Of a stretch of DNA of 35,129 nt, positions 8,147 to 34,962 are shown one piece after another. The stretch is from positions 1 to 35,129 of the forward strand of contig JAHIKR010000064.1 in the NCBI GenBank assembly GCA_018897415.1, written 5' to 3'. Every line of letters starts with the position of its first letter. The first letter of the stretch is position 1. The notes beneath the pieces were generated by a model. That model searched no databases, was not told the origin of the DNA, and worked only from the letters and a program-made list of their open reading frames with translations. A program made the position numbers and the translations under genes. This stretch comes from Pseudomonadota bacterium (GTDB lineage: Bacteria > Desulfobacterota > Desulfobacteria > Desulfobacterales > ETH-SRB1).

Positions 8147-8173
8147 CAGCTATGCTCCAAGCTCTTGCCTCTT

Positions 8174-8608: not shown

Positions 8609-8609
8609 C

Positions 8610-8999: not shown

Positions 9000-9059
9000 G
9001 CCTTAAAACTTAATCACTTAAAACTTAATCACTTAAAACTTAATCACTTAAAACTTAAC
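9000..9059 (+). repeat. Tandem repeat, 4 x 15 bp (CACTTAAAACTTAAT), ending 3 nt before the aldo/keto reductase ATG
   Basis: gccttaaaacttaat / cacttaaaacttaat / cacttaaaacttaat / cacttaaaacttaac, read directly from the sequence. Confidence 0.9.
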
Positions 9060-9062
9060 ACT

Positions 9063-10735: not shown

Positions 10736-10759
10736 TATTGATCAAAATGGAGATTGAAT

Positions 10760-12871
10760 ATGGAAAGAGAAAAAATTACTATATATCTTGCAGAATTGGC
10801 TCACAATGGTTTTGGACTTAGCTTGAATACCATTCCCTTGGGTATAGGAAGTGTTGGAGCCTACAGCAAAAATAAATATGGTAATCAAATTGAAATACGT
10901 TTGTTCAGACAATTTGAAGACTTAATGAATGCTATATCAGATTTGCCGCCACATATTGTTGGCTTAGGATATTTTACATGGAATGACAATTTGACGCTTG
11001 CGGCCTTAAAATGTGTGAGGGAAATCAGTCCCGATACCCTGATTGTTCTCGGTGGCCTCAACATAACTATTAAAGGGTGGGAGAACACAACAAATAACGT
11101 TACCTCTAAAAAAAGGAAACCTTGTGATGAATACGCAAGAAAATATGATTTTACACTGCTTAATAATAATGCAGATATCGATATTATTGTACATGGAGAT
11201 GGGGAGGTTCCCTTTTCAAACATTATAGAAAAAATGATGGATTCCGCAAATCGATTACAAGTAAAAAGCCAGCCTATCGATGGGTGTACTACATTAGTTG
11301 ATGGAAATTTACTTGCAGGCAAAGTGGTTTCACCTTTGCTTGACCTGGATGTTATACCTTCTCCTTATATAATGGGCTTATATGCTGAATTGTTTGAACG
11401 ATATCAGTTAGTCCCTCAAGTTGAGTCTGTAAGGGGATGTCCTTACAATTGCACCTACTGTACGATTGGCGGAAATATTAATAAGCTGAGAAAACATAGT
11501 TTAGAATATATTAAGGAGGAGATCTTATTTCTTAAAGACAACAGCCCTAACAGAATTTTAAGAATAGCGGATTCAAATTGGGGTATTCTGAAAAGAGATG
11601 TCGAGTTGGCCGAGTTTATCAGGGAATTACATAATTCCACTGGCTACCCAAGTTCATTGAGAGTCTATTACGCAGAAAAAGGCCCTTTTGAAAATGTAAG
11701 AAGAATGGCGAAGACACTGAAGACTTTGCTGCCTTTGAATATGAGCTTCCAGACCTTAACAAAGGAAGTTTTGAAAAATGTTAAAAGACAAAACATGCCG
11801 ATTTCTAAGGTTAAGGAAATGGTTAAATTTGCTCATAGCAATAATATATCCGTTTCTACTGAACTTATTTCTGGACTACCAGGAGAAACATATCAGTCTT
11901 TCAGGGATGTATTCTTGGAAACCGTAAAGCTCAACTTTGATAGCGTTTATGTTGGCACCCTTTATTTAACAAAGGGTGCAGAATTATATACGGATAGAGC
12001 TAGGAAACAGTACGGTTTGAAGACAAAATATGTACTTCTCGGCAATAATATTACAAAACTTAATTCTCGTTATGTCATTGACGCAGATGAAGTTGTGACC
12101 GAGTCAAATAGAATATCTCTGAACGATTTTTGGGGACTTCATAAGTTCAATTTTTTTATTTTTTCATGTTATGGTGCAGCGTTCTTGAAAGAGATCATTA
12201 TGCACTGTATCAATTATCAGATAACGCCATTAGACCTATATGATGAATTATGTGAAAGGCCTGATTGTTACCCGTTTTTTAACGAAATCGCCGACAAATA
12301 CATGACAACTGTGAAAACAAAATACTTTGACACGAGAGAAGAACTTGAGGAAGCGGTATCAAAAACTATTAAGAAAAATGGTAATATTAATGAATTCAGC
12401 GTATATAGGCAGTGTTTTTATCGCCTTGGAAGGATTGCTAGTAGCCGATACAAACATTTATTTATCTCTGATTTTGTAAAATCTGCACGCTCAATTTATG
12501 ATAAAAATAGAAACAAGAATGAAGATGATAAATTTCACTCCATTCTGGATATGCTTGGTGATTTAGCAATAGATGTAATAATTTCGCCCCTGGAAGAAGT
12601 AAAAAAGGAAATTGTAAGATCATATAACTATGATTTAATAACATGGGCAAAGGACGATTATAAAAAACCTTTATCGGGATATAATTTAAAAAAAACAAGA
12701 AGGTTTTCGCTATGCGTCAGAAATATAAATGAGCATAGAGAATTATCTAATAAGACAAAAGGTTGGGGTGACTTAGAAAAATATGCATTTTATTTTACAA
12801 CTGTTGTTTCATCTAATATGAGGCGCTTAATTAAATATACTCATCGCGAAGACAGCGCCATCATTGAATAG
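10760..12871 (+). CDS. B12-binding-domain radical SAM enzyme (class B-like), large 700-aa form
   Basis: CxxxCxxC cluster RGCPYNCTYC with a preceding cobalamin-binding-like Rossmann region (IVGLGYFTW...LIVLGG). The ATG at 10760 follows GGAGA (10749-10753); the ORF track begins at TTG 10754. The gene is visibly more AT-rich than its neighbours. Confidence 0.8.
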   Translation: MEREKITIYLAELAHNGFGLSLNTIPLGIGSVGAYSKNKYGNQIEIRLFRQFEDLMNAISDLPPHIVGLGYFTWNDNLTLAALKCVREISPDTLIVLGGLNITIKGWENTTNNVTSKKRKPCDEYARKYDFTLLNNNADIDIIVHGDGEVPFSNIIEKMMDSANRLQVKSQPIDGCTTLVDGNLLAGKVVSPLLDLDVIPSPYIMGLYAELFERYQLVPQVESVRGCPYNCTYCTIGGNINKLRKHSLEYIKEEILFLKDNSPNRILRIADSNWGILKRDVELAEFIRELHNSTGYPSSLRVYYAEKGPFENVRRMAKTLKTLLPLNMSFQTLTKEVLKNVKRQNMPISKVKEMVKFAHSNNISVSTELISGLPGETYQSFRDVFLETVKLNFDSVYVGTLYLTKGAELYTDRARKQYGLKTKYVLLGNNITKLNSRYVIDADEVVTESNRISLNDFWGLHKFNFFIFSCYGAAFLKEIIMHCINYQITPLDLYDELCERPDCYPFFNEIADKYMTTVKTKYFDTREELEEAVSKTIKKNGNINEFSVYRQCFYRLGRIASSRYKHLFISDFVKSARSIYDKNRNKNEDDKFHSILDMLGDLAIDVIISPLEEVKKEIVRSYNYDLITWAKDDYKKPLSGYNLKKTRRFSLCVRNINEHRELSNKTKGWGDLEKYAFYFTTVVSSNMRRLIKYTHREDSAIIE

Positions 12872-12907
12872 CTGGATTTAGATTACATAAAATGCAAGCA
12901 AATTTAA

Positions 12908-13216
12908 TCATCCGCACATGATCAAGGAAAGAATCGACATCGAAGTGAGCTCTGCACGCTTTATATGTGCGAAAATCCGAAAAAGTTTTATCTTCAACGT
13001 CTTCATCCGGAATCGTCTAAGGTCCAGAGGCCTGATATTCGCTTAACCGTAGATTATCCGGAGGATTTAATCGTTGCACGAGAGGTTTATGAATTTCTTA
13101 AAAAACCGGGCGAATACATTAATGTTGCAGACATTATTGATTATATGGATGCCTATCCAAAATTGAAAGAATTGAACGGATGGATTGACGCCGGTATAGG
13201 AAGAATATGGAATTAG
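12908..13216 (+). pseudogene. C-terminal fragment of a second SpsF-type cytidylyltransferase
   Basis: The open frame reads ...SELCTLYMCENPKKFYLQRLHPESSKVQRPDIRLTVDYPEDLIVAREVYEFL. This parallels SHLEHVTPFIYMHPERFKIKSHKYHTDLSHLRWTVDEYEDLEFVRRIYEIL of the intact gene at 9944-10735. The N-terminal two thirds are absent. Confidence 0.65.
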
Positions 13217-13388
13217 AAGAAACAGTTATGACATGCAAGTATATTCTGAAAGACCAGGTAGAAGATGCAATCACTTAAGTATACCACATTAAGATACTCC
13301 ATCTGAACATTTCAAGAACTGATTTGTCAGTTCATAAATACACTTTCAGTGAAAAGATAAGCAATAATAATATTCAGGAAGGGTCATC

Positions 13389-15155
13389 ATGAATTTTAGC
13401 ACTTTTAACATGCATTTCAAAATTAACATGCGTTTCAAAAGATGGGTTAGAAAGTGGATACTCAGCGAGCATCTGTTTCGGAAGATTAGGCTTTATCGTT
13501 ACGACAAACTCCAGAAATTCTGGTTAGGCCACCCCCCGGTACCTGCACCTCCCTTCGAGACAAGCTATTTTAGAAAAGCAAATTTAGACCCACGTGTGGT
13601 TCGTCGTCTGGATGATTATCGATCCGCTGTAGTTGTAACAGGAAAAACCGAATTGCCTATTGAGAAGCGGAACGGAAAATCGTCAATTCAATTTGCAATA
13701 AGTCCGGCAAGAGATTGGGTTCCCGATAAGTTAGTTCGTTTTAAAATTGGTGGACACGAAACTCTTATTCGAGAAATACCGGTGGATCGGTGGTTCGATG
13801 TGCGCTTGGATCTTGAGGATGAAGACAAAACGTTGATTGTTGAACCAGATGCACCGGTTGAAATAACTATGCCGAGGCTCGTAAAAAATCCTATTCTGGA
13901 AAAGAATAGAAAGGAGATACGCCATATAGTCGTTTGCGTACTGGATGCATGGTCAACGGCCACTGTAAATGAAAAACATCCTATGACAGGGGAAAATAGC
14001 TTGACGCCTAATATAGATCGTTTTTTTTCGCAAGGCTTGTGTGCAAGAAAGGGTATATCAAGCGGGCAATGGACGTTGCCGGCTGTTGGTACTCTGTTCA
14101 CCGGGTTGCATGTTTCGCGTCATAAAATGACACATCCATGGCGCTGGCAGGAATTTGATCGTAATCGTCGAACATTGCCTGAATATTTTCAACATGCCGG
14201 TTATCATACCTTGTGTGGGTCCGTTGTGTCGCGGGTTACACCCGCATTTGGTCACAATCGGGGCTTTGATCGCTTCCTGTATCATTTTCCGGGATTTTCA
14301 TACCAGACTTATGATCCCGCTGTCTGGATACAGGAAATTATCGGTCATATGGAGGCACATTATGGAGATCGGACGTTCAGCTATTTCCAGTTTCCTGATA
14401 CCCATCCCTCGTGGGACATTGCCCCCGAAACGAGATATTTTCATTTATGCCGTCGTGGAAACACGTCGTCAAATCTTAAACAGTTGATGACATCAAAGGC
14501 TTCGAAAATTTTTGACATACCTAACCAAGCTCAACAATTATATTCTTTAAGACTCGCTGAGATCGACAGGATGCTTGGCTGCATTTTTGATTATGTAGAA
14601 AGAAAATTCGAAGAAGAAGCCCTTATCGTTGTGACAGCAGATCATGGTATGCGAATGCCGTATATGAGCGAAGCCCATCAAAACGATGAACCTTTCCTGA
14701 CAGATATTCGAGTTAATATCCCTCTATTCATGCGTGGTCTCGGCGTTCCCGTATGCTCTTATGACGGATTATGTCCGCCAAATCTTGATCTGCCTTTAAC
14801 TCTCTTAAATCTGGCAGGTCTAAAACCGGACTTAGATGATTTTGACGGTACAAACGTCCTGGATCGGATCAGTCTCCAAAAAGAATGTGTTATAAGTGAA
14901 TATGTTTACGCAGGAATCTACGAACTTGCAGTTAGAGGCTATGGCCACGCATTATTTTTAAAATTCGAGATCGACGACAAAGCATATAAGATTCTTTCAA
15001 GAGAACCGATATACATAGGACTATATTCGCTTAATACAGCTTCATACGGGAAAGATAACGATTTAATAAACGAAAAACCTGATGTTTTCGAAACTCTTCG
15101 CAAGGTTGCAATTGATCATATTAACAACATAGGTCTGATGGAGAATATCGGATGA
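13389..15155 (+). CDS. Alkaline-phosphatase-superfamily enzyme (phosphodiesterase/NPP- or sulfatase-like) with an N-terminal extension of about 170 aa
   Basis: Metal-site-like VCVLDAWS. The nucleophile region is QWTLPAVGTLFTG (T-x-P, not the C/S-x-P-x-R of FGly sulfatases). VVTADHGM is also present. RBS AGGAAGG. The stop overlaps the next gene's start (ATGA). Confidence 0.7.
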   Translation: MNFSTFNMHFKINMRFKRWVRKWILSEHLFRKIRLYRYDKLQKFWLGHPPVPAPPFETSYFRKANLDPRVVRRLDDYRSAVVVTGKTELPIEKRNGKSSIQFAISPARDWVPDKLVRFKIGGHETLIREIPVDRWFDVRLDLEDEDKTLIVEPDAPVEITMPRLVKNPILEKNRKEIRHIVVCVLDAWSTATVNEKHPMTGENSLTPNIDRFFSQGLCARKGISSGQWTLPAVGTLFTGLHVSRHKMTHPWRWQEFDRNRRTLPEYFQHAGYHTLCGSVVSRVTPAFGHNRGFDRFLYHFPGFSYQTYDPAVWIQEIIGHMEAHYGDRTFSYFQFPDTHPSWDIAPETRYFHLCRRGNTSSNLKQLMTSKASKIFDIPNQAQQLYSLRLAEIDRMLGCIFDYVERKFEEEALIVVTADHGMRMPYMSEAHQNDEPFLTDIRVNIPLFMRGLGVPVCSYDGLCPPNLDLPLTLLNLAGLKPDLDDFDGTNVLDRISLQKECVISEYVYAGIYELAVRGYGHALFLKFEIDDKAYKILSREPIYIGLYSLNTASYGKDNDLINEKPDVFETLRKVAIDHINNIGLMENIG

Positions 15156-20838: not shown

Positions 20839-22821
20839 ATGAAATTGGATTTTTTGTGCAAGATGAAAAACAAAAGAATCTTTTTTGAGAAAGTATCTTT
20901 TATCCATTATCCTCTCTTATTCTATTATTTATGGAGAGGATATGATATATATGTATTTGATTTTACATATAATATGAAAAAATCCAAATTATTACGATCT
21001 CTTATAAATAGAGAAAAGGTTATACGGATTTATATTAAATCCAGTACAAAAGAACATGGACTCGCAATTGATCAAACAGAAGTCATTTACAACCACCTTA
21101 AAAATGAAAAGATAATACGGATATTATCCGATCTTTATAAAACTACAGAAACGGACTTAGCTTTCAAAAAAATATTATTAAATGAGGTATTTAAACATAT
21201 TTATATAAACCAATATCTAAGCGATGAGGAGAAAGAACAAAAAGATTCTTTTGATATATTCTTTGTTCCTCATAATTACAATTTTTATGGGAAAATAATT
21301 AAAGATTACGGTAATTATAATATGAGGCCACTAAGAAAAATAAAAATAAATAAGTGGTTTTCATATATTTTCCCCTTTGTCGAAAGTTACGATAAACTTA
21401 AATGGCGTTTGGTGGCATTGTTTTATATTTTCCCAAAGATAGCATTGTTGTTCTTAGCAAGATTGTGTGCAGCGAAATCTTCATCGAAAGCCCACTTTAA
21501 GTATGCCATTCCCATAGATCAAATATTTCAGATTAAGTTCAATGGCAAAAGAAGCTTTGATTTTCTATTAGATTATGAAGAGATTAATAAAAAAAATACG
21601 ATTTTTATTCTCAACTATGCAGTTGATAAAGATTGGTTGGCTGAGCAGAAAGAAAAGGGATATTATTTTTTGAACACAAAAAATAATTTTAATATTCATC
21701 AGATGACAAAATTTCATTTGTCGGGCAAGTTATTACGCCTTACTTTTATGAGCCTAGTAAAAATGCTATTTGCAAGCACTTCTCACGTGCCATTTTTAAT
21801 TTGCTTCGTATATGGGATGAACATTTTTATTAAATGGAATATAATTTTTAATCAAATTTCCGCTGAAAATTATGTGTATACAAATCAAGAGGGAGTTGCC
21901 CAAATATTGATCAATATTCTTGTCGCAAAACATGGTGGGGCAACCTGGAATTATTCTTCATTCATTGGCGGAGGATTGCTTTATTCTAGGGACAATGATT
22001 TTAATGATTGCAGACATATCCTTTGGGCTTTTCTTAATAGTGATCACTTTCTGGCGGTAAACCGGGATGTTGTTAAGTATTATAGACTGCATCATCAGAA
22101 AATCCGCAATTATCATATCATAGGCAATATTTATTCTGAGATGGTTCGAGAGGAAATGGGAAAAATTAATAAGAAGGAATTCATTATCCAGTATTATCAT
22201 AGGCATTTTGCCAATAATATGAAAATTGTCGTTTACCTTGATACAACTTTTGTCGATGATGACAATGTATTTACTTCTTATGATGACGCAATAGCATCCT
22301 ATCAAGATATGCTTAGATTGCTCGATGAGCGAGAAGAACTTTTAATGATAGTTAAACCTTCCAAGAATGAGGATTTTTTTATCTCACCTTTAAGACAATG
22401 GTCTTCACCTGAAAAAGGAAAAATAATTATCGGCCTGTGGGAAAGTCTTAAGACTCATGAAAGAGTGTATTGGGCGGGCCACGCAGGTGATCTTCCTAAA
22501 ATTATGGCGATTAGCGACCTCGTTATCACGCATTGTATGTCTTCGCCCACGGTTGAAGCCCTTGGAGCAAGAAAAAAAGCCTTCTGGTATGAATCAGGTG
22601 ATAAGCATAGGGGGCTTGCATATGATAAAATTCCACAATTAGTGATTCATGGATACCATGATTTGAAAAAAAGAATTGAATATCTTTTATATGAAATTAA
22701 TGATGATGAATATGATGAATATTTGAACAAAAATATTAAATCCAAGATTGAATACCAACTTGATGGATTAGCTTTAACAAGATTTCGAAAGTTAATCTGC
22801 GCTGAAAAGAATAATCATTAA
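20839..22821 (+). CDS. Large orphan protein with a GT-B-like C-terminal half (candidate acidic-sugar transferase)
   Basis: 660 aa, very AT-rich and Lys/Asn/Ile/Tyr-rich, with a few hydrophobic segments. The C-terminal pattern is LMIVKPSK ... ISDLVITHCMSSPTVEALGARKKAFWYE. Confidence 0.55.
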   Translation: MKLDFLCKMKNKRIFFEKVSFIHYPLLFYYLWRGYDIYVFDFTYNMKKSKLLRSLINREKVIRIYIKSSTKEHGLAIDQTEVIYNHLKNEKIIRILSDLYKTTETDLAFKKILLNEVFKHIYINQYLSDEEKEQKDSFDIFFVPHNYNFYGKIIKDYGNYNMRPLRKIKINKWFSYIFPFVESYDKLKWRLVALFYIFPKIALLFLARLCAAKSSSKAHFKYAIPIDQIFQIKFNGKRSFDFLLDYEEINKKNTIFILNYAVDKDWLAEQKEKGYYFLNTKNNFNIHQMTKFHLSGKLLRLTFMSLVKMLFASTSHVPFLICFVYGMNIFIKWNIIFNQISAENYVYTNQEGVAQILINILVAKHGGATWNYSSFIGGGLLYSRDNDFNDCRHILWAFLNSDHFLAVNRDVVKYYRLHHQKIRNYHIIGNIYSEMVREEMGKINKKEFIIQYYHRHFANNMKIVVYLDTTFVDDDNVFTSYDDAIASYQDMLRLLDEREELLMIVKPSKNEDFFISPLRQWSSPEKGKIIIGLWESLKTHERVYWAGHAGDLPKIMAISDLVITHCMSSPTVEALGARKKAFWYESGDKHRGLAYDKIPQLVIHGYHDLKKRIEYLLYEINDDEYDEYLNKNIKSKIEYQLDGLALTRFRKLICAEKNNH

Positions 22822-22839
22822 TAAAGAAATATCTTAATA

Positions 22840-24324
22840 GTGGCAACTAAAGAACAGCAGATAAAAAACAGTTTTATCTATCTATTGCCCATCATAATTA
22901 GTAATCTACTCCCTTTTATTACATTGCCGATATTTACCAGAATCCTTACCAGGGAAGATTACGGGGTTTTGGCGTTAGCTCAGGTATATGCAATTTTTGT
23001 GACCGGTTTGGCAAATTTCGGAATGACCGTGTCTTACGACCGAAACTATTTTCAATATCGAGATAATCGCGTAGAAACGGCGAAATTATTATATTCCACT
23101 CTCCTCTTTGTAATGTTGAATTTTCTTTTTCTCGCTGGTTTGACTTATTTATTCAAGGGAACTCTCTCAAAGCTCATTATAGGATCTGCTGAACATGCGA
23201 ACATTATGTTCTGGGCGTTTTGTGCACAGTTTTTCAGTAGCGTGAGCTATTACTACTTGGCTTATTTTAAAAACTCCGAATCAGCAAAAAAGTTTGTTGT
23301 TTATACAATCACAGGTAGTCTTATTGCCATTATCATTTCTCTTTATCTGGTAGTTTATCTGCGTATCGGTGTTATTGGAATTGTATATGCGCAGTTGTGC
23401 TCTGGAACCTTAGTTTTTGCTATATTAACTTATAAATTTACAAATATTTTTTCCATTACATTTAGCAAACCGATATTTGTTGAGTCGCTGAAAATAAGTT
23501 ATCCCTTAACACCCAGGATATTTTTGGGTGTTATAGGCTCACAATTTGATAAATACATGATCGGTTTGTTGGCCTCAGTCGGGGGGGTCGGAATATATAG
23601 TATTGGTCAGAAAGTAGCATATGTTACATTTAGTTATATGACGGCGTTGGAAAACGTCTATGCGCCGCAGGTATATAAAAAAATGTTTGATCTTGGGGAT
23701 AAGGGCGGTGAAGCAGTGGGACCGTACCTTACTCCGTTTTTTTATATATCAATTTTGGTTGCGCTGATGATTTCCTTATTTTCTCAAGAGGTTATTACAA
23801 TTTTGACTCCAAGCTCGTATCATGAAGCCATAGATATAGTTACAGTTTTATCTATGCTATATGGGTCGTATTTTTTCGGAAAACAGCCTCAGCTTATCTT
23901 TGCAAAGAAAACATGGATGACCTCTGCTCTTACTCTGGTAAATATTACTCTCAACATTGCGATAAATATCCCGTTCATTATAAAATGGGGAGCCATTGGC
24001 GCTGCCTGGGCTACGCTTACCGCAGGAGTGATCTCCTGTTCGATTTCCTTTGCTATTTCGCAGCACTACTACCGAATCAGGTGGGAGTATGGAAATCTGG
24101 CATACATCTTCTTGACCTTTTTTGGATTTTCAATCCTTATTATATTATTGAGGGACATGAATGCCGCATACTCGGTGCTTTTGGGTGTGAAGATAATTGC
24201 TGTTATGATTTATGTCTTGATCGGTGTAAAAATAAGAGTGATTACTATGAAAAACTGGATGCTCGTGAAGGATATGCTTTTCAACTTAAAGACACGTTCG
24301 CTATTGGGAAATTCTCAATCTTGA
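22840..24324 (+). CDS. wzx: Wzx-type oligosaccharide flippase (MOP superfamily polysaccharide biosynthesis protein)
   Basis: 494 aa with about 12-14 hydrophobic helices and a Wzx-like N-terminus (SFIYLLPIIISNLLPFITLPIFTRILTREDYG). GTG start. Confidence 0.75.
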   Translation: MATKEQQIKNSFIYLLPIIISNLLPFITLPIFTRILTREDYGVLALAQVYAIFVTGLANFGMTVSYDRNYFQYRDNRVETAKLLYSTLLFVMLNFLFLAGLTYLFKGTLSKLIIGSAEHANIMFWAFCAQFFSSVSYYYLAYFKNSESAKKFVVYTITGSLIAIIISLYLVVYLRIGVIGIVYAQLCSGTLVFAILTYKFTNIFSITFSKPIFVESLKISYPLTPRIFLGVIGSQFDKYMIGLLASVGGVGIYSIGQKVAYVTFSYMTALENVYAPQVYKKMFDLGDKGGEAVGPYLTPFFYISILVALMISLFSQEVITILTPSSYHEAIDIVTVLSMLYGSYFFGKQPQLIFAKKTWMTSALTLVNITLNIAINIPFIIKWGAIGAAWATLTAGVISCSISFAISQHYYRIRWEYGNLAYIFLTFFGFSILIILLRDMNAAYSVLLGVKIIAVMIYVLIGVKIRVITMKNWMLVKDMLFNLKTRSLLGNSQS

Positions 24325-24355
24325 GCTAATGGGATTGCTGATGAGTTCTGTTGTG
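24285..24355 (+). repeat. Direct repeat copy 1 (wzx 3' end plus the decayed start of the downstream gene)
   Basis: About 90% identical by eye to 26102-26175. The exact core cgctattgggaaattctcaatcttgag is at 24299-24325 and 26119-26145. Confidence 0.85.
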
Positions 24356-24417
24356 GAAGTAAAACGATTCTTTGAAGCCAGAATGGAGTAACATCGTAAG
24401 ACAGAAAGGGATTTATT

Positions 24418-25437
24418 GTGGATATGAATTGTAGAATATTAGCCACGTTGGGGCCGAGTTCATTGCGGCAGGATATTATCTCGCAGATTGAGAATGAATA
24501 TTTATATCTTTTTCGCATTAATCTATCACATACACCAATCGATTCATTAGCGGATATCATAAGCAAAATTCAAAGCTACACCGAAATTCCTATCTGCTTG
24601 GATTCCGAGGGAGCACAGATTCGGAATCAATCGGTGACCAATGGAAAAATATTCCTTCATAAGGATGACGCAATAAAAATCCATTTCAATGAAATTCTGG
24701 GGGATTCAAAGAATCTATCTTTTACACCTCCTAATATAGCCGAGCAGCTAACTGTGGGTGACGAGATGAGTATTGACTTCAATTCAACTCGCATCAAGAT
24801 CATTGAGAAACACATGAAATACTGTAAGGCTAAGGTAGAACATGGGGGGAAGGTTGGTAGTAACAAGGCTGCCACCCTGAACAGGGAAATTGATATGGAA
24901 GCGATTACTTCCAAAGATAAGAAGGCAATCACGATTGCGAAAGAAATGGGGATCAAATATTTTGCTTTGTCTTTTGCCGGATCAAGTGAAGACGTCAAAA
25001 CGATGCGTGAACTCGCAGGAAGAGATGCGACCATCATTTCAAAAATTGAGAGCAAGAAAGGTGTTCTTAACCTCAATGATATAATAGATGCAAGTGACGA
25101 AATTCTTATTGACCGAGGTGATTTATCCAGAGAGATTAATCTTGAGAAGATTCCATTTCTACAAAGGAGAATAATTGCAATGGCAAGATCAAAAAAAGTG
25201 CCTGTATATGTTGCCACAAATCTCCTCGAGTCAATGGTAAAAGTGCCGGAGCCCACAAGGGCGGAAATTAATGATGTGGTAAGTACATTGTTAATGGGTG
25301 CAAATGGATTGGTTCTAGCCGCTGAAACCGCCATAGGAAAATATCCTGTAAAAGCTGCAAAGATGATTAAAAAGCTCATAAGCCAAACAGAAAAGTGGAC
25401 ATCAAATACCAGTATTACAGAATTACTAGAGAGTTGA
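24418..25437 (+). CDS. Pyruvate-kinase-like enzyme lacking the C-terminal regulatory domain
   Basis: ILATLGPSS...FRINLSHT, DSEGAQIR, KIESKKG, IDRGDLSREI and PTRAEINDVVSTLLMGANGLVLAAETAIGKYPVKA match the pyruvate kinase barrel motifs. It is only 339 aa. The likely true start is the ATG at 24424 (MNCRIL). Confidence 0.75.
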   Translation: MDMNCRILATLGPSSLRQDIISQIENEYLYLFRINLSHTPIDSLADIISKIQSYTEIPICLDSEGAQIRNQSVTNGKIFLHKDDAIKIHFNEILGDSKNLSFTPPNIAEQLTVGDEMSIDFNSTRIKIIEKHMKYCKAKVEHGGKVGSNKAATLNREIDMEAITSKDKKAITIAKEMGIKYFALSFAGSSEDVKTMRELAGRDATIISKIESKKGVLNLNDIIDASDEILIDRGDLSREINLEKIPFLQRRIIAMARSKKVPVYVATNLLESMVKVPEPTRAEINDVVSTLLMGANGLVLAAETAIGKYPVKAAKMIKKLISQTEKWTSNTSITELLES

Positions 25438-25492
25438 CAAAAATAGGCAATATCAACAGTTTTTAAGAAGAACTAACTATAGGTTAATAACT

Positions 25493-26056
25493 ATGTGCCG
25501 GGTGTATAACAACGGTAATAATGTTTTTTGGATAATGGGTCCCACAGCGAGCGGTAAAACGACTTTAGCCAATATCATTCTATCAAAGTTACGGGAAAAT
25601 GATACACTGGCTATTCATTATGATGGCGATGAGGTGCGAGATTTCTTTGGTCTGAGTCTTGGCTTCGAAAAAGCGGACCGGCTGAAGGTTGTCAAGACGA
25701 TTGTTCATCTTTCAAACAAGGCCATTGATGCCGGCCTAAACGTAATTATTTCCGCTTTAACTGCTAACCAGGATGCACGGGATTATGTGATACGGAATGT
25801 GAAAAATTTAATACTTATTTATCTTGAATGTAGCATCAAAAAATGTATGCAAAGGGACACTAAGGGCCTCTACGAAAAAGCGGCAAATAAAGAAATAAAC
25901 ACCGTTATCGGTTATAATGATGAATACTTGGCGCCGGAAAATCCAGATATTATCATTAATACAGATGAGAAATCGGTTGAAAGCAGTGCTCTCGATCTTA
26001 TGGAACGACTTCGCGAGCGTGGAATTATAAAAAAACCTTTCCAGAATTTAATCTAA
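25493..26056 (+). CDS. cysC: Adenylyl-sulfate (APS) kinase family protein
   Basis: P-loop GPTASGKTT, YDGDEVR and ISALTANQDARDYV resemble the CysC motifs (GxSGSGKST, LDGDNxR, SFISP). The substrate cannot be inferred from sequence. Confidence 0.65.
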   Translation: MCRVYNNGNNVFWIMGPTASGKTTLANIILSKLRENDTLAIHYDGDEVRDFFGLSLGFEKADRLKVVKTIVHLSNKAIDAGLNVIISALTANQDARDYVIRNVKNLILIYLECSIKKCMQRDTKGLYEKAANKEINTVIGYNDEYLAPENPDIIINTDEKSVESSALDLMERLRERGIIKKPFQNLI

Positions 26057-26101
26057 ATCTTCCATTAACAACAGGCTGCTAATGAAGAACATTTTTTTAG
26101 A

Positions 26102-26175
26102 CCTAAAGATACGCTCCTCGCTATTGGGAAATTCTCAATCTTGAGTTAATGAGATCGCTGATGAGTTCTATTGTG
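26102..26175 (+). repeat. Direct repeat copy 2 (pseudo wzx 3' end plus the true start of ORF 26149)
   Basis: Reads ...LKIRSSLLGNSQS* followed by ATGAGATCGCTGATGAGTTCT. It mirrors LKTRSLLGNSQS* plus atgggattgctgatgagttct at 24285-24355. Confidence 0.85.
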
Positions 26176-28023
26176 ATTATACATAGTCTATCACGTGCAC
26201 GGCATTTCTTGAGCACTCAGCCGCGTCACTTGCTTGGCAATGGACGTTATTTGGCCTTTCCGACTTCTACTACCCTAATGGTTATCAAGTTTTTGGAAGA
26301 TCTTGGTATAAAGGCGTTTCTTCCATGCCCTATTTCTAAAGAACGGCGCGACAAATTTCTGCGTGATTATATTGATATAATGGATGTACTGGCAGATCAA
26401 AACGGTCATGAGCTGCAATGGTGGGCTACCGATCTGGCTTCAAAAAATCGTTTTACTTCTCCTCTATTTGGGCTTCTAGATGCGCTTGTACGTTGCCATG
26501 ATGCTATAGACAAGGTATCTGGACAAAGACAATTGTTAGTTCTTATCCATCCGCCCTGGCCGGTAGTGCTTTCCCTGGAAAACTCAGCCAAGATTTGTGA
26601 GTGGGACTTGAAGATTCTATCATCGCCTATTTCAAAGTACCTTGCTCGATATCGAGGCAAGGCTAAAACATGGATGAGTGTTCTTATGGGGGGTTTTTCT
26701 TCTCTCTTTCGCATTTGGGAAACAAGACGTTGCTTCGGACTAATGCATAGGAAGAAAGAAAAAAATAAGCCGATTTATTTAATAAAGAGTTTTGTATATC
26801 CTGGCTCATTTTCCAAAGATGGTCTCTTTCATGACCCTTTTTTTGGAAAACTGTCGGAATTCCTCAAAAGGTCGATAGGGGATAAGGTTGACATTCTTAC
26901 TGTAGCTGTTGGCGCAGAAAATAGGAATGAATGTTATCAACGGATGAAGTCTCTTAAAGGACAACAGGTTGTTCCGTTGGAAGCGTTTTTGAGGTATTCT
27001 GATGTCCTTAAGGCGCTTCTGCATATATGGTGGAGTTGTATTACCAAACCGTTTCGGATGGTGACCAAATTGTCTTTTCTTGGAAACGAAATTTCAGGCC
27101 TGGTAAAAGAGTGCCTTTCATCAGGTGGTTGGAGGATTAAGCTTTATCAATATTTACATTTGTTTGCTGCTGAGCAAATTGTCCGGACTTATCGGCTTTA
27201 CGCCTGTGCGTTAACATTTGAAGGGAACCCTTGGGAGCGTATGTTTGTCGAAGGACTGAGACGTCATTTTCCGGAAACGCCTATTTTTGGTTACCAGCAT
27301 TCAGTTGTCCCTCAAGCTGCTGCCGGGGTTTTTATCAGCCCGAGAGAAAAAAAATACTCCCCCTTGCCATCCATTGTATTAACCACGGGTGATGTCCCAG
27401 CCGGCATTATGCGGCATTACGGAATGTTATCCGACGATAGTATTCGGCCATCGTGCGCTTTACGTTATGACTATCTTTATAATATAAATTATAGGGAGAG
27501 TGGGGAGCAGAGTAGATTTCTTGTGCTTGTGGCCTTAGAAGGTGTTCTGGAGGTGCTTCCTCTGCTTGAATATGTGTTTGATCAGGCTCCAAAATGCTCA
27601 GATGCCATTTTCCGCATTCGCGCACATCCGGTAATGCCTTTGCCGGAAATTCTAAGTAAACTAGGCAGGAGGATAGACCCGGAGGGGAATATTGAGACTT
27701 CCTCAGGTGGGACGGTGGCCAGTGATGTAGAGAAGAGTTCTGCAATTCTCTACTGGGGGACAACCGTGGCATTAGAAGCTTTAATGATGGGGAAGCCTCT
27801 AATACACTTTGATCGGGGTGATTTGCTCAGCTATGACCCCTTGTTCGAATTTAACGATTTCAAGTGGACCGTAGGAAAAAACAAGGATCTTCACACTATT
27901 CTGGAAGAAATCCGAAACCTGCCTGATGAAAAGCATGCTGTTTTGAGTGAGATAGGAAGAAACTATATTAGTTCGTATTTTAATAAAGTTAATGAAAAAT
28001 CCATAAGCAAATTCCTTCCTTAA
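26149..28023 (+). CDS. Large orphan protein with a GT-B-like C-terminal half (candidate Kdo/NulO transferase)
   Basis: 624 aa. The pattern TFEGNPWE ... GYQHSV ... FRIRAHPV ... ILYWGTTVALEALMMGKPLIHFD recalls HP-motif sialyl/Kdo-type or capsule-synthesis GT-B enzymes. By eye the layout parallels ORF 20839. Confidence 0.55.
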   Translation: MRSLMSSIVIIHSLSRARHFLSTQPRHLLGNGRYLAFPTSTTLMVIKFLEDLGIKAFLPCPISKERRDKFLRDYIDIMDVLADQNGHELQWWATDLASKNRFTSPLFGLLDALVRCHDAIDKVSGQRQLLVLIHPPWPVVLSLENSAKICEWDLKILSSPISKYLARYRGKAKTWMSVLMGGFSSLFRIWETRRCFGLMHRKKEKNKPIYLIKSFVYPGSFSKDGLFHDPFFGKLSEFLKRSIGDKVDILTVAVGAENRNECYQRMKSLKGQQVVPLEAFLRYSDVLKALLHIWWSCITKPFRMVTKLSFLGNEISGLVKECLSSGGWRIKLYQYLHLFAAEQIVRTYRLYACALTFEGNPWERMFVEGLRRHFPETPIFGYQHSVVPQAAAGVFISPREKKYSPLPSIVLTTGDVPAGIMRHYGMLSDDSIRPSCALRYDYLYNINYRESGEQSRFLVLVALEGVLEVLPLLEYVFDQAPKCSDAIFRIRAHPVMPLPEILSKLGRRIDPEGNIETSSGGTVASDVEKSSAILYWGTTVALEALMMGKPLIHFDRGDLLSYDPLFEFNDFKWTVGKNKDLHTILEEIRNLPDEKHAVLSEIGRNYISSYFNKVNEKSISKFLP

Positions 28024-28051
28024 ATTCATTGGATATTGTTTCCCTTAAGGC

Positions 28052-28081
28052 TTGACAAATCGTTTGGTCTCTTCATATAAG
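28052..28081 (+). promoter_or_regulatory. Candidate sigma70-type promoter (TTGACA-N18-TATAAG) for the CBS-kdsA-kdsB sub-operon
   Basis: TTGACA at 28052-28057 and TATAAG at 28076-28081. It lies in a 290-nt gap after ORF 26149 and about 230 nt upstream of the ATG at 28314. Confidence 0.35.
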
Positions 28082-28313
28082 CTGGATGAATTTTTTTTAC
28101 AATTTTGAGTAGCGGGTGCCACTGATATGAACAAGACATTGAGGGGGAAACACGTTTGTTGAAAAAGTTTCATAAAATGAGACCTTCATTTTCGTACGAG
28201 AAATGGCAAGGAGAGCGAAGTGGATACGCCACTGAGACAATTACATAGGTGGCATCTTAGAACATTAGTTTTAAGGTTTTGGAGTTTGTAAATTAGCTCA
28301 GGAGGTATAGAAT

Positions 28314-28703
28314 ATGAAAAGAATAACTGAGATTATGCGGTCAGGAGAAAATAATGCAGTATCAAATAAGGATGCCTGTTTTAGAGAAGTCTTGGAGATA
28401 ATGGATGCCAAGCGTCTTGGTGTGGTTTGTATTGTGGATGAGGGAAAACTGATAGGAATAGTGACTGACGGAGATCTCAGACGACTCATTCTAAAAACAC
28501 AGGATACCTTGCCTGACCTTTTTATGAAGAAAGTTAACAAGATTATGACTCTAAACCCAAAAGTTATCTCATCTGAGGCAAGTCTTGAAGATTGCCTTAA
28601 TATGTTAAAAAAACACAGATTTTGGGTTATTCCGGTGGTTAATGAAGAGCAGATGCTTCTGGGAGTTGTGCATATGCAGGATCTGCTTGAAGCACTGATA
28701 TAG
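28314..28703 (+). CDS. Stand-alone CBS-pair protein corresponding to the C-terminal part of KdsD/KpsF arabinose-5-phosphate isomerase
   Basis: ITEIMRSGENNAV...LGVVCIVDEGKLIGIVTDGDLRRLIL...IMTLNPKVI...VIPVVNEEQMLLGVVHMQDLLEA matches the KdsD CBS region. There is no SIS domain, and an in-frame stop lies 2 codons upstream of the ATG. Strong RBS AGGAGG. Confidence 0.75.
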   Translation: MKRITEIMRSGENNAVSNKDACFREVLEIMDAKRLGVVCIVDEGKLIGIVTDGDLRRLILKTQDTLPDLFMKKVNKIMTLNPKVISSEASLEDCLNMLKKHRFWVIPVVNEEQMLLGVVHMQDLLEALI

Positions 28704-28712
28704 GGAGAAGAC

Positions 28713-29570
28713 ATGATAAAAGACGTCCATATTGGAAAGGAACGTGTAGAAAAAGTTGTTGTTGGAGAAAACGAGCCATTGACTCTGATTGCCGGTCCGT
28801 GTGCGATTGAATCAGAAGAACATTCGCTACGAATGGCAGAGGCTATTCAGGAAATAACCAAAAGACTCAAAATTCAATTCGTCTTCAAGTCTTGTTATGA
28901 TAAAGATTGCAGAAGTTCTATTAAAAGTTACCATGGGATTGGTGTTACCAAAGGGCTTGCGATATTGAGAAAAGTCCGTGAGACTTTCCATGTTCCGGTC
29001 ACCGCAGATGTAAGCAATGTTGCCTTGGTGAGCGAGGTGGCCGAAGTTGTTGATCTCATACAGATTCCAGCCTATCTCAGCCGTCAAACACATTTACTGG
29101 TCTCCGCCGGCGAAACCGGCCTCCCTATTCATATCAAAAAGGGACAGTTTCTAAGTCCATGGAATATGAAAAATGCGGCCATTAAGGTCGAGTCCACTGG
29201 AAATCGTAACATTATCCTGACGGATCGGGGGACATTTTTCGGATATAACATGCTTGTAACCGATATGCGTTGCTTTAGAATCATGCGAGACTCCGGTTAC
29301 CCCGTGTGTTATGATGCTACGCACAGCATTCAAATGCCTGGTAGCCTTGGAACTTCCAGTGGTGGGCAAAGAGAGTTCATTCCTGATCTTACAAGGGCTG
29401 CCATGGGAGCCGGTGCTAACGCTCTGTTCATTGAAGTGCACGACAATCCTCAAAGTGCCCTGTGCGATGCCACGACACAACTCCCTTTGAAATTTCTGGA
29501 GGCTTTGCTCATACAGGCAAAGGCAATATACGATTTGGTCCGTCAGTTTCCGGAATTAGAAATCAATTAG
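28713..29570 (+). CDS. kdsA: 3-deoxy-8-phosphooctulonate (Kdo-8-P) synthase
   Basis: LTLIAGPCAIESEEH, FKSCYDKDCRSS, IQIPAYLSRQTHLL, DATHSIQMPG. Confidence 0.9.
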   Translation: MIKDVHIGKERVEKVVVGENEPLTLIAGPCAIESEEHSLRMAEAIQEITKRLKIQFVFKSCYDKDCRSSIKSYHGIGVTKGLAILRKVRETFHVPVTADVSNVALVSEVAEVVDLIQIPAYLSRQTHLLVSAGETGLPIHIKKGQFLSPWNMKNAAIKVESTGNRNIILTDRGTFFGYNMLVTDMRCFRIMRDSGYPVCYDATHSIQMPGSLGTSSGGQREFIPDLTRAAMGAGANALFIEVHDNPQSALCDATTQLPLKFLEALLIQAKAIYDLVRQFPELEIN

Positions 29571-29618
29571 TTGCATTTTAAATAAACCATAACGCAGAGA
29601 ACTAGTCGAAGGAGAAAA

Positions 29619-30389
29619 ATGAAAAAAAGAGTTGTAGCTGTTATTCCTGCCCGCATGGGATCATCCAGATTTCCGGGTAAACCGCTAGCTATGATCCTCA
29701 ATTTGCCCATGATCGAGCATGTGCGCAGAAGGGTTTGCCTTTCCGACGTCATAGACGATGTCTATGTAGCTACATGCGACCAAGAGATCTTCGATGTCGT
29801 CATCCGTTTTGGCGGTAAAACGGTCATGACCAAGAATACCCATGAACGCTGTACGGACAGAGTTGAGGAGGCAGCTCACGAGATTGACCTGGATATTGCC
29901 GTTATGGTTCAGGGAGATGAGCCTCTATTTATGCCGGAGGCTCTCGCCAAGCTGGTTGAACCAATGCTTGTTGATGATTTGCTGCCATGCACAAATCTAA
30001 TTTCAGTGATTCATAATGATGAAGATTTATCCGATGTGGATATCGTAAAAACTGTGCTGGATGAGAAGGGCTTTGTTATGTATTTTTCAAGGTCTCCTGT
30101 TCCACATATACGCGTCCAAAACGACTGCCCACTCTTTCGCCAAACGGGAGTTTCTGCCTTTACAAAGTCCTTTCTGCATACCTATTCCAAGCTTCAGCCT
30201 ACGATGCTTGAGGTGGCGGAGTCCGTAGATTTTTTGCGTATTATAGGGCACCGATATCCGATCAAAGGAGTCATATACGATCGCGTCTTAGTAGGAGTGG
30301 ATCGTCCCGATGATATTGGTAAGGTTGAGAAAATTCTGAGCGAGGATCCTGAACAAAAAACACTCTATGAGAGAATACTGAATATATGA
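29619..30389 (+). CDS. kdsB: 3-deoxy-manno-octulosonate cytidylyltransferase (CMP-Kdo synthetase)
   Basis: VAVIPARMGSSRFPGKPLAMI, VMVQGDEPLF, 256 aa, RBS GAAGGAG. Confidence 0.85.
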   Translation: MKKRVVAVIPARMGSSRFPGKPLAMILNLPMIEHVRRRVCLSDVIDDVYVATCDQEIFDVVIRFGGKTVMTKNTHERCTDRVEEAAHEIDLDIAVMVQGDEPLFMPEALAKLVEPMLVDDLLPCTNLISVIHNDEDLSDVDIVKTVLDEKGFVMYFSRSPVPHIRVQNDCPLFRQTGVSAFTKSFLHTYSKLQPTMLEVAESVDFLRIIGHRYPIKGVIYDRVLVGVDRPDDIGKVEKILSEDPEQKTLYERILNI

Positions 30390-30595
30390 ACAAAAAAATA
30401 TTTGTAGCCTTATCAACTTTTGCTGAGTATGGGGATGACCCGTTAAAACTTCTTGAAGAAAGCGGGTTAGAGTATTCTTTGAACTCCTTGGGCCGTCGGA
30501 TTGTCCGGGAGGAAATCATCGAGATGGGCAAAGACGCGACCTGGATTGTTGCTGGAGTTGAGCCTTACAATACCCATATGAGGAGGTATATTTAA
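30386..30595 (+). pseudogene. N-terminal fragment (about 60 aa) of a D-isomer-specific 2-hydroxyacid dehydrogenase (phosphoglycerate-dehydrogenase-like)
   Basis: KIFVALSTFAEYGDDPLKLLEESGLEYSLNSLGRRIVREEIIEMGKDATWIVAGVEPYN fits the N-terminal substrate-binding lobe of this family. The frame then ends after THMRRYI, and the NAD domain is absent. ATGA overlap with the kdsB stop. Confidence 0.5.
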
Positions 30596-30600
30596 ATCGT

Positions 30601-31995
30601 ATGAATATTCTTTTTGTTATCACAAATATTAATGGTACTTATAACGATGCTTATTCTTTTGGATTAGCTTCAATAGCAAGCATTACAAGAGATAAAGGGT
30701 TTAATTATGATATTAAGGTTATTAATAAAATTGAAGATTATGATGACTTATTTGATGCAGTTGAAAGGATAAAACCAAAAGTAATCGGATATTCAAGTGT
30801 ATCTTCTCAATTTATGTTTGTAAAAGATATTTCATCAAAAATAAAGGCAAGATTTCATGATAACATAATACAGGTTTGCGGTGGTATTCATCCAACAATT
30901 TATCCTGAATGTATCCTTGAAACGGAAATGATAGACGGTATTTTTATAGGTGAAGCAGAATATGCATTTTCTGATTTTTTGGATAGGGTATCAAATGGTA
31001 TACCTTACAAAGATGTAAAGAATTTTGCATATAACAATAATGGCACTTTAGTGAAAAATAGTTTGTATCCGCTAGAAACTGAATTAGAAAAGCTCCCATT
31101 TCCTGAAAGGGAAAAATATGGATATGATCGATTCGTAAAGAGAGATGGAATTGCTCATTTCTTATTTGCTAGGGGATGCCCTTACAATTGCAGTTTTTGC
31201 TGTAATCAGGCTAAAGCGCAAACTTACAATATGCGCATAAATACACCAAGATACAGATCTCCTGAAAGCTCCATTGAAGAGATTAAGCGGTTGTTAAAGA
31301 AATTCTCTTTTAGTAAAATTTTTATTTCAGATGATACATTTGGTGTAAATAAAAAATGGATGAGAGAATTTTGCAATAAATATGCTAAAGAAATAAGATT
31401 GCCTCTATGCTGTCAACTGCGTGTTAATATAGTGAACGAAGAAATAATGGAATATCTAAAACTAGCTGGATGTGTTCATGTTACCTGTGGTGTGGAATCA
31501 GGAAATACCTATATAAGAAAAGAAATAATGAAAAAAAACTATAGTGAAAAACAGATTGTCAACGCATATTCTTTATTTAAAAAATATGGAATGACATCAA
31601 ATGTCACAAATATTATAGGAGTTCCACAAGATACTGTTGATACTATTTGGGACACCATCAAATTAAATAGAAAAATTAATCCTACAAGTAGTGGAGTAAA
31701 CATCTTTTATCCGTATCGTGGAACAGAGCTTGGAAATTATTGTTTTAAAAAAGGCTTGATCGATGAAGATATATTTAATAAATTTAGTACAGAACGCAGA
31801 GAGTCTTGTTTGAATTTTCCTGCTGAATTTAAGAAAAAACTTGTCTATTTCCATAGAAATTGGCAATTGCTTGTATATAAACACAGACCATTAAAATTTT
31901 TATATTACTCTTTACTAAAATACATGCCAACACCTTTATTGAATACTCTTAGATTTATAAAAAGAAGGCTCTATATGGTGTTTCCAGGGTGGTGA
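30601..31995 (+). CDS. B12-binding-domain radical SAM enzyme (class B-like), 464-aa form
   Basis: RGCPYNCSFC cluster and an N-terminal cobalamin-binding-like region (KVIGYSSVSSQF...IQVCGGIHPT). The gene is markedly AT-rich. Confidence 0.8.
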   Translation: MNILFVITNINGTYNDAYSFGLASIASITRDKGFNYDIKVINKIEDYDDLFDAVERIKPKVIGYSSVSSQFMFVKDISSKIKARFHDNIIQVCGGIHPTIYPECILETEMIDGIFIGEAEYAFSDFLDRVSNGIPYKDVKNFAYNNNGTLVKNSLYPLETELEKLPFPEREKYGYDRFVKRDGIAHFLFARGCPYNCSFCCNQAKAQTYNMRINTPRYRSPESSIEEIKRLLKKFSFSKIFISDDTFGVNKKWMREFCNKYAKEIRLPLCCQLRVNIVNEEIMEYLKLAGCVHVTCGVESGNTYIRKEIMKKNYSEKQIVNAYSLFKKYGMTSNVTNIIGVPQDTVDTIWDTIKLNRKINPTSSGVNIFYPYRGTELGNYCFKKGLIDEDIFNKFSTERRESCLNFPAEFKKKLVYFHRNWQLLVYKHRPLKFLYYSLLKYMPTPLLNTLRFIKRRLYMVFPGW

Positions 31996-33244: not shown

Positions 33245-33261
33245 ACCACAAGCCATAAAGT

Positions 33262-33461
33262 GAGACCTTTGAAAAACGCTTCCTTTATGTCATTCCCGCG
33301 AAGCTTGTCCTCGACCCGATCGGGGAGCGGGAATCTATAACTGATTGAGAATGCTTGTCCTCGACCTGATCGGGGACTGGATTCCCGTTTTCACGGGAAT
33401 GACGATCTTGTCCTCGACCTGATCGGGGATTAGACTATTTCTGGCAAAATTCAAAGGTCTC
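33262..33461 (+). mobile_element. MITE-like element C (200 bp): same terminal repeats as elements A and B, different interior, TSD AAAGT
   Basis: The ends gagacctttgaa / ttcaaaggtctc form a perfect 12-bp inverted repeat. The flanking pentamers 33257-33261 and 33462-33466 are both AAAGT. The interior holds 3 copies of cttgtcctcgacc(c/t)gatcgggga (33303, 33353, 33406) and attcccg...cgggaat hairpins. Confidence 0.8.
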
Positions 33462-33503
33462 AAAGTATATGACATAGTGAGTAAAACCATTACGGATATT
33501 GAG

Positions 33504-34795: not shown

Positions 34796-34962
34796 GAGAC
34801 CTTTGAAAAATGTTCAATTTTGTTCAAGTTCAAGGAAGGCGAAAATTTTAAATGCAGGAATACATTGAGTATTTCGAGGCTTAAAATTTGAGTCTGACAC
34901 AGGCACTTTAGTGAAGCTTTATAGCGCTAATTGGGCAAAAGGGGGCGTTTTGCAAAGGTCTC
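34796..34962 (-). mobile_element. MITE-like element B (167 bp), an inverted copy of element A, TSD TGATA
   Basis: Identical to the reverse complement of 4026-4192 at 164 of 167 positions by manual alignment. The flanking pentamers 34791-34795 and 34963-34967 are both TGATA. Confidence 0.85.

Follow-up and report, generated by a model that had tools for sequence, protein, structure and literature searches.

A duplicated wzx junction around a two-gene cassette, probably left by two steps of module shuffling in a surface-polysaccharide locus

The O-antigen loci of Escherichia coli and Salmonella and the pneumococcal cps loci are mosaic clusters, with remnant gene fragments at the boundaries between modules. 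Homology-facilitated illegitimate recombination in natural transformation is said to have been described in 2002 by de Vries and Wackernagel and in the same year by Prudhomme et al. We analyzed a mosaic locus in a 35-kb stretch of DNA (contig JAHIKR010000064.1, 35,129 nucleotides [nt]; hereafter the window), in which the junction between a flippase gene, wzx, and the open reading frame (ORF) that begins at position 26149 (ORF26149) is present in two copies. Between the copies lies a cassette of two genes, one encoding a pyruvate-kinase-like (PK-like) protein and the other a protein resembling adenylyl-sulfate (APS) kinase. Our preferred explanation, to which we assign a probability of roughly 0.75, is that the repeat is a two-step scar of module shuffling in a surface-polysaccharide locus.

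The window resembles the O-antigen and cps loci in that its breakpoints lie at gene boundaries, its modules have different nearest relatives, truncated remnants mark the joints and a conserved flank is the likely crossover site. It differs from them in that the anchor is internal, at the wzx/glycosyltransferase junction rather than at the cluster edge, in the inverted, templated filler at one joint, and in coming from an uncultured bacterium. As in homology-facilitated illegitimate recombination, homology accounts for one side (the junction and ORF26149) and an illegitimate join with filler for the other, but the 3 to 10 nt of microhomology found at classical joints has no counterpart here. 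Transposon target duplications and integron cassettes likewise place direct repeats around an inserted gene set, whereas the repeats here are 58 to 106 nt long, of unequal age and made of host gene ends, and the cassette is bounded by no terminal inverted repeats and has no attC-like site. Shuffling of modules that leaves gene remnants behind is already well known in surface-glycan loci, and the window is a clean new example of it in an uncultured bacterium that leaves unchanged what is known on the evolution of such loci. New here are an inverted snippet of 27 nt, the unequal ages of the two halves of the duplication and a conserved island of about 270 nt. The result is a base-level record of how a locus was rebuilt (which piece came from which lineage, in what order and by what kind of joint), which helps in interpreting metagenomic mosaics and guards against the annotation of gene stubs as small genes.

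The two junction copies (Table 1) share a direct repeat of 58 nt (24298-24355 and 26118-26175) that is identical at 54 positions (93%) and contains an exact 27-nt core, CGCTATTGGGAAATTCTCAATCTTGAG, which occurs exactly twice in 35 kb against an expectation of zero (100 shuffles). Weaker similarity extends upstream, between 24247-24297 and 26064-26117, with 36 matches, 15 mismatches and three gap columns (a 3-nt indel). In copy 1 the real wzx product ends in ...LKTRSLLGNSQS before its stop codon, and in copy 2 a pseudo tail ending in ...LKIRSSLLGNSQS and a stop codon stands ahead of the real ORF26149 start. An initial annotation of the window had described this duplication with its core and its weaker upstream similarity, had assigned the real wzx end to copy 1 and a pseudo end plus the real ORF26149 start to copy 2, and had counted exactly two genes between them; our alignments, translations and gene coordinates agree with it on each of these points. 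Its alternative of a dispersed genomic repeat is ruled out: the right half of the core is found once per locus in nine related loci (which we denote, with other loci, by L numbers), always 5' of an ORF26149 homologue, and twice only in the window and its twin L007. A pattern scan with the core gave a single match among metagenome contigs, namely the contig from which L001 comes, and no match among genome contigs. Because L007, an independently assembled Logan contig (run SRR7080180), is identical at 100% to window positions 23774-26506, spanning both copies, and because the same wzx, PK-like, APS-kinase-like and ORF26149 proteins recur in several metagenome-assembled genomes (MAGs) and a Joint Genome Institute (JGI) contig, the repeat structure is not an assembly artefact; the JGI contig, of 26 kb, and several MAGs encode the same wzx, PK-like and ORF26149 proteins.

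Related loci without the cassette indicate the order from which the window departed. In three groups of relatives a gene for a protein with a PFTS motif is followed by wzx and, after a gap of 16 to 50 nt, by the ORF26149 homologue, which is 92-93% identical at the amino acid (aa) level in L001, L002 and L014, 62% in L003 to L006 and 59% in L062 and L063; wzx followed by an ORF26149 homologue also occurs in genomes of other phyla (L020, L024, L026, L033 and L053). Judged from these comparisons, the ancestral order is PFTS protein, wzx, ORF26149, the last two 16 to 50 nt apart. The initial annotation had postulated this adjacency and named orthologous loci as the place to look for it, and the cassette-free relatives bear it out.

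Along the window the nearest relative changes from one segment to the next, and these changes are located at the copies of the repeat. The wzx segment (22831-24355) is 88.9% identical at the nucleotide level to L003 (8488-10015) and 75.5% to L001 (by tblastn, 88% and 75% aa, respectively); homology to L003 starts at 22831, 9 nt 5' of the wzx start codon, and the PFTS gene upstream is like neither (22-25% aa). From ORF26149 through KdsB (26070-30577) the resemblance is reversed, at 91.2% to L001 versus 72% to L003. The cassette has its nearest relative in L008 (PK-like gene 95.6% and APS-kinase-like gene 97.2% nt identity); because its GC content of 39% is like that of the flanks and its composition not distinct, the donor would have been a compositionally similar genome. 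This mosaic of L003-like wzx, L008-like cassette and L001-like ORF26149 side upholds the recombination scar proposed initially. L008 itself carries the same cassette, the same decayed pseudo-wzx tail and ORF26149, with homology running from about 24396 through the tail into ORF26149; its left flank, however, is not that of the window but consists of a distant wzx (55% aa) together with two unrelated ORFs, and L008 lacks 47 nt at copy 2, including the core and the first ATG. Because L008 has these parts behind another left flank, the cassette, decayed tail and ORF26149 form a unit independent of copy 1, in keeping with the earlier proposal that the two genes traveled together with a piece of a wzx tail. 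The pair lies directly upstream of ORF26149 only in the window, L007 and L008, and in unrelated contexts in L009, L012, L064 and L066. L061 adds an independent example: there a junction remnant stays with the ORF26149 homologue (74% identical) after rearrangement upstream, and at L061:1-116, 5' of that homologue, lie a terminator-like hairpin and about 50 nt of pseudo-junction in which GAAATTCTCAATCTTGAGTTAATG is intact.

At the left joint of the cassette, copy 1 runs on past the wzx stop codon into a stub of ORF26149 (24331-24355, ATGGGATTGCTGATGAGTTCTGTTGTG) that is L001-like, with 2 differences to L001 and 6 to L003 as counted on the alignment. Exactly where the direct homology of copy 1 stops there begins an inverted snippet of ORF26149, overlooked in the initial annotation, which comprises codons of the conserved IASKNRF motif and whose match to 26433-26459 is expected zero times by chance. 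The order at the joint is thus stub end (24355), snippet, 7 to 13 nt of filler and then L008-like sequence, which begins about 30 nt before the PK-like start. Because of the inverted ORF26149 snippet, we read the left joint as an illegitimate join with captured or templated filler. The fragments at the joints (the pseudo-wzx tail at 26064-26144, the stub at 24331-24355 and the snippet at 24356-24382) are non-functional. Copy 1 does keep the ORF26149 start region, which opens a 20-codon ORF that ends 24 nt before the PK-like start; this short frame may feed ribosomes to the PK-like gene or couple its translation.

The remnants on the two sides of the cassette differ in age. The pseudo tail ahead of copy 2 has lost conserved wzx residues (W to R, V to M and D to N), and because it is common to the window and L008 (87% identical over 26057-26105) it predates their split. 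Between the real tail in copy 1 and L001 there is a difference of 1 nt, plus a 3-nt indel. Measured against L001, 18 of 54 positions have changed in the pseudo tail (33%) versus 2 of 55 in the stub plus snippet (4%; Fisher p = 4.7e-5), and the left joint is, on these counts, the younger of the two. One event that duplicated 106 nt of target is unlikely because the two remnants differ in age. The initial annotation's insertion or recombination scar therefore stands as a scar, and not as a simple one-step insertion with target duplication; what it took for a decayed ORF26149 start in copy 1 is present as a stub, which is young, with two or three changes, rather than decayed.

The core itself has not aged with its surroundings. 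The 58-nt repeat in copy 1 has 4 differences to L001 and 9 to L003, and the chance that the 27-nt core of copy 2 would be intact if it had diverged like the adjacent tail is 2e-5, so that the core was either constrained as the start region of ORF26149 or refreshed by recombination. Constraint is favored by L061, in which the right half of the core has survived an unrelated rearrangement upstream; refreshment is favored by the identity between the window and L001, which is 98% from 26118 to about 26450-26515 and about 93% beyond (p = 0.001). The best change point along this comparison (26445-26517) lies near the source of the snippet (26433-26459) and not at it, so that the coincidence of the two is suggestive rather than exact. 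Sites compared three ways among the window, L008 and L001 (9:2 versus 5:9, p = 0.04) are likewise only suggestive of a crossover beside copy 2.

Around the junction the two parental types are themselves unusually alike. Over L001 positions 9750-10020, L001 and L003 types are 85-97% identical, compared with 52-77% elsewhere in wzx and ORF26149, and this island of about 270 nt takes in roughly the final 230 nt of wzx and about 20 nt at the beginning of ORF26149. Inside it the window changes from L003-like to L001-like sequence, and the island is likely to be a homologous crossover anchor at which left and right halves of the locus are exchanged. A bolder proposal, which we hold to be a long shot, is that the island is a dedicated portable anchor for plugging cassettes in and out without a scar, and that the PK-like protein (with its altered motifs) and the APS-kinase-like protein make up an undescribed pathway that yields an activated donor of sulfate or phosphate, with the PK-like protein replacing ATP sulfurylase. 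The junction sequence is conserved far beyond coding needs, and the PK-like/APS-kinase-like pair is widespread; both merit separate study.

Taken as two steps, the history of the window would run as follows. In an older step, a segment ending in the PK-like and APS-kinase-like genes would have replaced all that lay left of a position some 85 nt short of the wzx stop codon, leaving 5' of ORF26149 a stub of wzx tail that then decayed except in the stretch just upstream of the start codon, a state common to L008. In a younger step, an intact L003-type wzx, accompanied by its conserved junction and by 27 nt from the start of an L001-type ORF26149, would have been joined illegitimately about 30 nt upstream of the PK-like gene, the inverted 27-nt ORF26149 snippet and some 7 to 13 nt of filler being captured at the joint. 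This would give the present order of copy 1 (real wzx end and young stub), cassette and copy 2 (old pseudo tail and real start). If the two 58-nt repeats were to recombine with each other, the cassette would be lost and the ancestral junction re-formed with no trace left. Several points weigh against this account. The number and order of the events are inferred from five or six related contigs, among which an intermediate with the full junction ahead of the cassette was not found; the comparison of ages rests on about 55 nt per side; the joints of the snippet have at most 1 nt of microhomology on either side and bear no mark of the enzymology of joining; the identity of the core in copy 2 could reflect selection on the start of ORF26149 rather than a recent crossover (L061 keeps half of the core and L008 none of it); and, as to the role of the cassette in this locus, no sulfotransferase was recognized in the 35 kb of the window.

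A rival history is a single insertion, in which replication-based template switching placed the cassette within a still intact junction, with duplication of about 106 nt of target, the tail decayed afterward, and L008 was derived by replacement of the left flank and a 47-nt deletion. Written relative to L001, the window reads 8483-10015, inverted 10299-10273, cassette, 9910-14361, which is a clean overlap of 106 nt; inverted fillers are typical of template switching, and the 27-nt core is identical in both copies. Neutral remnants of one event should, however, share an age, and these are 33% and 4% diverged (p = 5e-5); L008 carries the decayed tail (87% identical) yet nothing of copy 1, stub or snippet; and the switch points show no microhomology. 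We consider this history unlikely, and we rejected a plain duplication in one event on the grounds that the copies are not of the same age and that L008 shares only the copy 2 remnant. It is much less probable still that the cassette is ancestral and that L001, L003 and others lost it by recombination between the direct repeats. Such recombination would regenerate exactly the L001/L003 junction, but the repeats are fragments of wzx and ORF26149 and so derive from an earlier intact junction, the cassette-free adjacency extends across several phyla compared with a cassette directly upstream in only the window, L007 and L008, and the pair sits in unrelated contexts elsewhere (L009, L012, L064 and L066).

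We also give very little credence to the idea that the repeats are a working device that varies the glycan by programmed excision and re-insertion through the direct repeats, or by inversion through the 27-nt inverted repeats. The geometry would allow it, given that 58-nt direct repeats flank the cassette, that 27-nt inverted repeats flank 24383-26432 and that a precise deletion would leave no scar. ORF26149 would, however, be severed by inversion between 24356-24382 and 26433-26459, no recombinase or integrase is present among the window ORFs scanned, and no cassette-free variant of the same strain was found. Pfam domains of transposases, integrases and invertases are absent from the 28 window ORFs scanned, Rfam gave no match in the window, the predicted RNA fold of the joint is as stable as those of shuffled sequences (z = 0.14), and promoter and terminator matches are at or below chance. 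The missing recombinase, together with the blank results for promoters, terminators, Rfam families and RNA folding, leads us not to regard the repeats as a device. A transposon, insertion sequence or integron cassette was rejected in the same way (no transposase or integrase, the only inverted repeat being the 27-nt snippet paired with its source inside ORF26149), as was a site-specific invertible element (no invertase, and an inversion that severs ORF26149). That the contig is an assembly chimera of two strains, fused at a common junction sequence, is scarcely credible: sequence such as the junction island, 90-97% identical between lineages, can mislead assemblers, but a chimera would not yield a second copy, an inverted snippet or filler, the copies differ at 4 positions, L007 spans both at 100%, and several MAGs and the 26-kb JGI contig carry the same proteins.

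Table 1. Features of the wzx/ORF26149 region, in window coordinates
Feature	Position	Strand	Evidence or remarks
wzx flippase gene (Polysacc_synt), L003-type allele	22840-24324	+	Pfam PF01943, E = 4e-19
Junction copy 1	24247-24355	+	Real wzx 3' end, stop codon and first 25-27 nt of ORF26149-type start; high-identity part 24298-24355
Inverted ORF26149 snippet, 27 nt	24356-24382	-	Reverse complement of 26433-26459 (26/27) and of L001 10273-10299 (27/27)
Filler of unplaced origin, ATGGAGTAACATC	24383-24395	.	L008 homology starts at about 24388-24396 (alignment); blastn start 24396
PK-like gene, A and B domains without C-terminal domain (cassette gene 1)	24418-25437	+	Pfam PK barrel, E = 4e-64, covers 4-327 of 328
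APS-kinase-like P-loop kinase gene (cassette gene 2)	25493-26056	+	Pfam PF01583, E = 3.5e-32
Old decayed pseudo-wzx tail	26064-26117	+	18/54 nt differ from L001 tail, 16/54 from L003 tail
Junction copy 2, high-identity part	26118-26175	+	Core, former wzx stop codon, real ORF26149 start; 54/58 to copy 1, 56/58 to L001
ORF26149, TIGR04326-related surface-carbohydrate protein, predicted GT-B fold	26149-28023	+	NCBIfam TIGR04326 weak, E = 2e-11
Source of snippet inside ORF26149	26433-26459	+	Close to right edge of tract 98% identical to L001

The first cassette gene belongs to a large, tightly conserved family of proteins of about 337 aa. Its product has 339 aa and stops after the barrel, and pyruvate kinases in PDB match residues 2-328 only. 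The catalytic motifs of pyruvate kinase are kept (FRINLSH, SKIES, RGDL, ATN and PTRAE), with the catalytic Arg, Lys, Glu, Asp and Thr in place, and conservation across 120 homologues extends to three motifs specific to the family (DSEGAQIRN, IDRGDLSR and ATNLLESM); in canonical pyruvate kinases the first two of these read DTKGPEIR and ARGDLGVE. The protein scores below the cut-offs of all NCBIfam pyruvate kinase models (258.6 versus 306.4 for TIGR01064). Because the C-terminal domain is absent and the scores fall below the cut-offs, we would class it as PK-like and not as a pyruvate kinase as filed (Enzyme Commission number 2.7.1.40). At NCBI, full-length copies bear the name 'pyruvate kinase', whereas two partial ones in a sister MAG (MBU4185241.1 and MBU4185464.1) are entered as 'sulfate adenylyltransferase, partial'; the latter naming is odd in that the PK-like gene occupies the position expected for ATP sulfurylase beside an APS kinase. 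The second gene product has its best PDB match in 7yq0, an adenylyl-sulfate kinase (E = 4e-28), shows the P-loop, DGD and KGLY motifs in its translation (GPTASGKTT, YDGDEVR and RDTKGLYEKA), and scores 130.7 bits against a cut-off of 138.7 for TIGR00455 and 118.6 against 127 for PRK05541.

As to what the pair does, two kinds of described system come closest. In rhizobia, NodPQ together with NodH exemplifies the supply of 3'-phosphoadenosine 5'-phosphosulfate (PAPS) inside glycan-modification loci, and papers on sulfated-capsule gene clusters are reported to use the terms adenylylsulfate kinase and sulfotransferase (PMC11641403 and PMC11766843). The window resembles these in having an APS-kinase-type gene in a polysaccharide locus, and a sulfotransferase gene stands beside the pair in L009, L012/L013 and L064/L065; it is unlike them in that a PK-like gene takes the place of ATP sulfurylase, that the window has no recognized sulfotransferase and that the APS-kinase-like protein falls just below its NCBIfam cut-offs. 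No sulfotransferase was recognized beside the pair in L066 or in L008, where a 247-aa ORF upstream of the cassette is not a recognizable one. The two genes are adjacent in all six contexts seen, all of them glycan loci. The second comparison is with Cj1415 of Campylobacter jejuni, an APS-kinase homologue that acts on a 3'-hydroxyl in the pathway to the capsular O-methyl phosphoramidate. By that description, the likeness lies in an APS-kinase-like enzyme that sits within a capsule locus and acts on a nucleotide-linked donor other than APS, and L012 has a phosphoramidate-type set beside the pair; in Campylobacter, however, Cj1415 is partnered by a glutamine kinase, a cytidylyltransferase and an amidase rather than by a PK-like protein. 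In one article, Cj1415 is named cytidine diphosphoramidate kinase (PMC11800397). By analogy with such systems, the cassette probably supplies a 3'-phosphorylated nucleotide donor, for example PAPS, for modification of the glycan, although our confidence in this is low. A literature search returned nothing relevant on TIGR04326 or on a PK-like partner of APS kinase.

The phosphoramidate-type set, found in L012 (L012:1339-11376) and L013, consists of an APS-kinase-like gene, a GATase and a 947-aa protein in which cytidylyltransferase, PPDK_N and PEP-utilizer domains are fused; the same locus also has two sulfotransferases and a separate PK-like/APS-kinase-like pair, directly upstream of a 633-aa LIC12162-like protein.

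ORF26149, the gene whose start was duplicated, can be placed mainly by structure. Against TIGR04326 it scores 42.8 bits (cut-off 250) over residues 326-587 only, short of full-length membership, and a PDB search with a sequence profile returned only noise. Its AlphaFold model has a pLDDT of 90.5, with best Foldseek matches to GT-B UDP-GlcNAc 2-epimerases and glycosyltransferases (E = 1e-10), and we confidently predict a family related to TIGR04326 with a GT-B fold. There are 224 homologues, mostly in Desulfobacterota-like metagenomes and some of them named TIGR04326 by JGI; in GTDB species representatives, homologues were found at up to 43% identity only. NCBI starts the gene at the second ATG, 26161 (as P0241 shows), and P0243, P0249 and P0255 are alternative gene calls of one sequence. 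Members of the family are usually followed by CBS, KdsA and KdsB genes, and ORF26149 is suggested to be a transferase of Kdo (3-deoxy-D-manno-octulosonic acid) type or ulosonic-acid type.

The window as a whole is a one-strand polysaccharide locus with NeuB, two cytidylyltransferases, KdsA and KdsB with a CBS protein, and glycosyltransferases, and it makes nonulosonic acid and Kdo. It also encodes B12-radical-SAM (S-adenosylmethionine) enzymes, a sulfatase-family transferase, an asparagine-synthase-like protein and the PFTS-motif protein. The contig is labeled Proteobacteria bacterium at NCBI, and a Desulfobacteraceae MAG has an entry for an identical PK-like protein. Two of the genes are further acquired modules: the PFTS gene (20839-22821), which is low in GC (31%), and a B12-binding radical-SAM gene (30601-31995; GC 30%, third codon positions 22%), which is an insertion relative to L001 between KdsB and a GT2 gene.

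Several smaller sequence features accompany the locus. The core of the junction contains a palindrome, ATTGGGA-AAT-TCTCAAT, at 24302-24318 and 26122-26138; in L003, with A in place of G, the 7-bp palindrome is perfect (ATTGAGA-AAT-TCTCAAT), and it is lost in L061. Lying 12 nt 5' of the ORF26149 start, it may form a hairpin or a protein site. The whole 30-kb locus is bracketed by two mutually inverted copies of a 167-nt element (4026-4192 and 34796-34962, 98% complementary), with a partial copy at 33255-33286. Each copy carries its own terminal inverted repeats (TGAGACCTTTG...), the right one within a stretch absent from L001 (34767-34975), and the element looks like a miniature inverted-repeat transposable element. 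Three direct repeats of 28 nt (CTTGTCCTCGACCTGATCGGGGA...), spaced 50 to 53 nt apart, lie at 33304-33434 inside a 200-nt stretch (33259-33462) that is also absent from L001. Tandem units of 15 nt (TCACTTAAAACTTAA) occur at 8173-8209 and 8999-9065, in intergenic or gene-start positions, and a related palindromic pair lies at 4417-4495.

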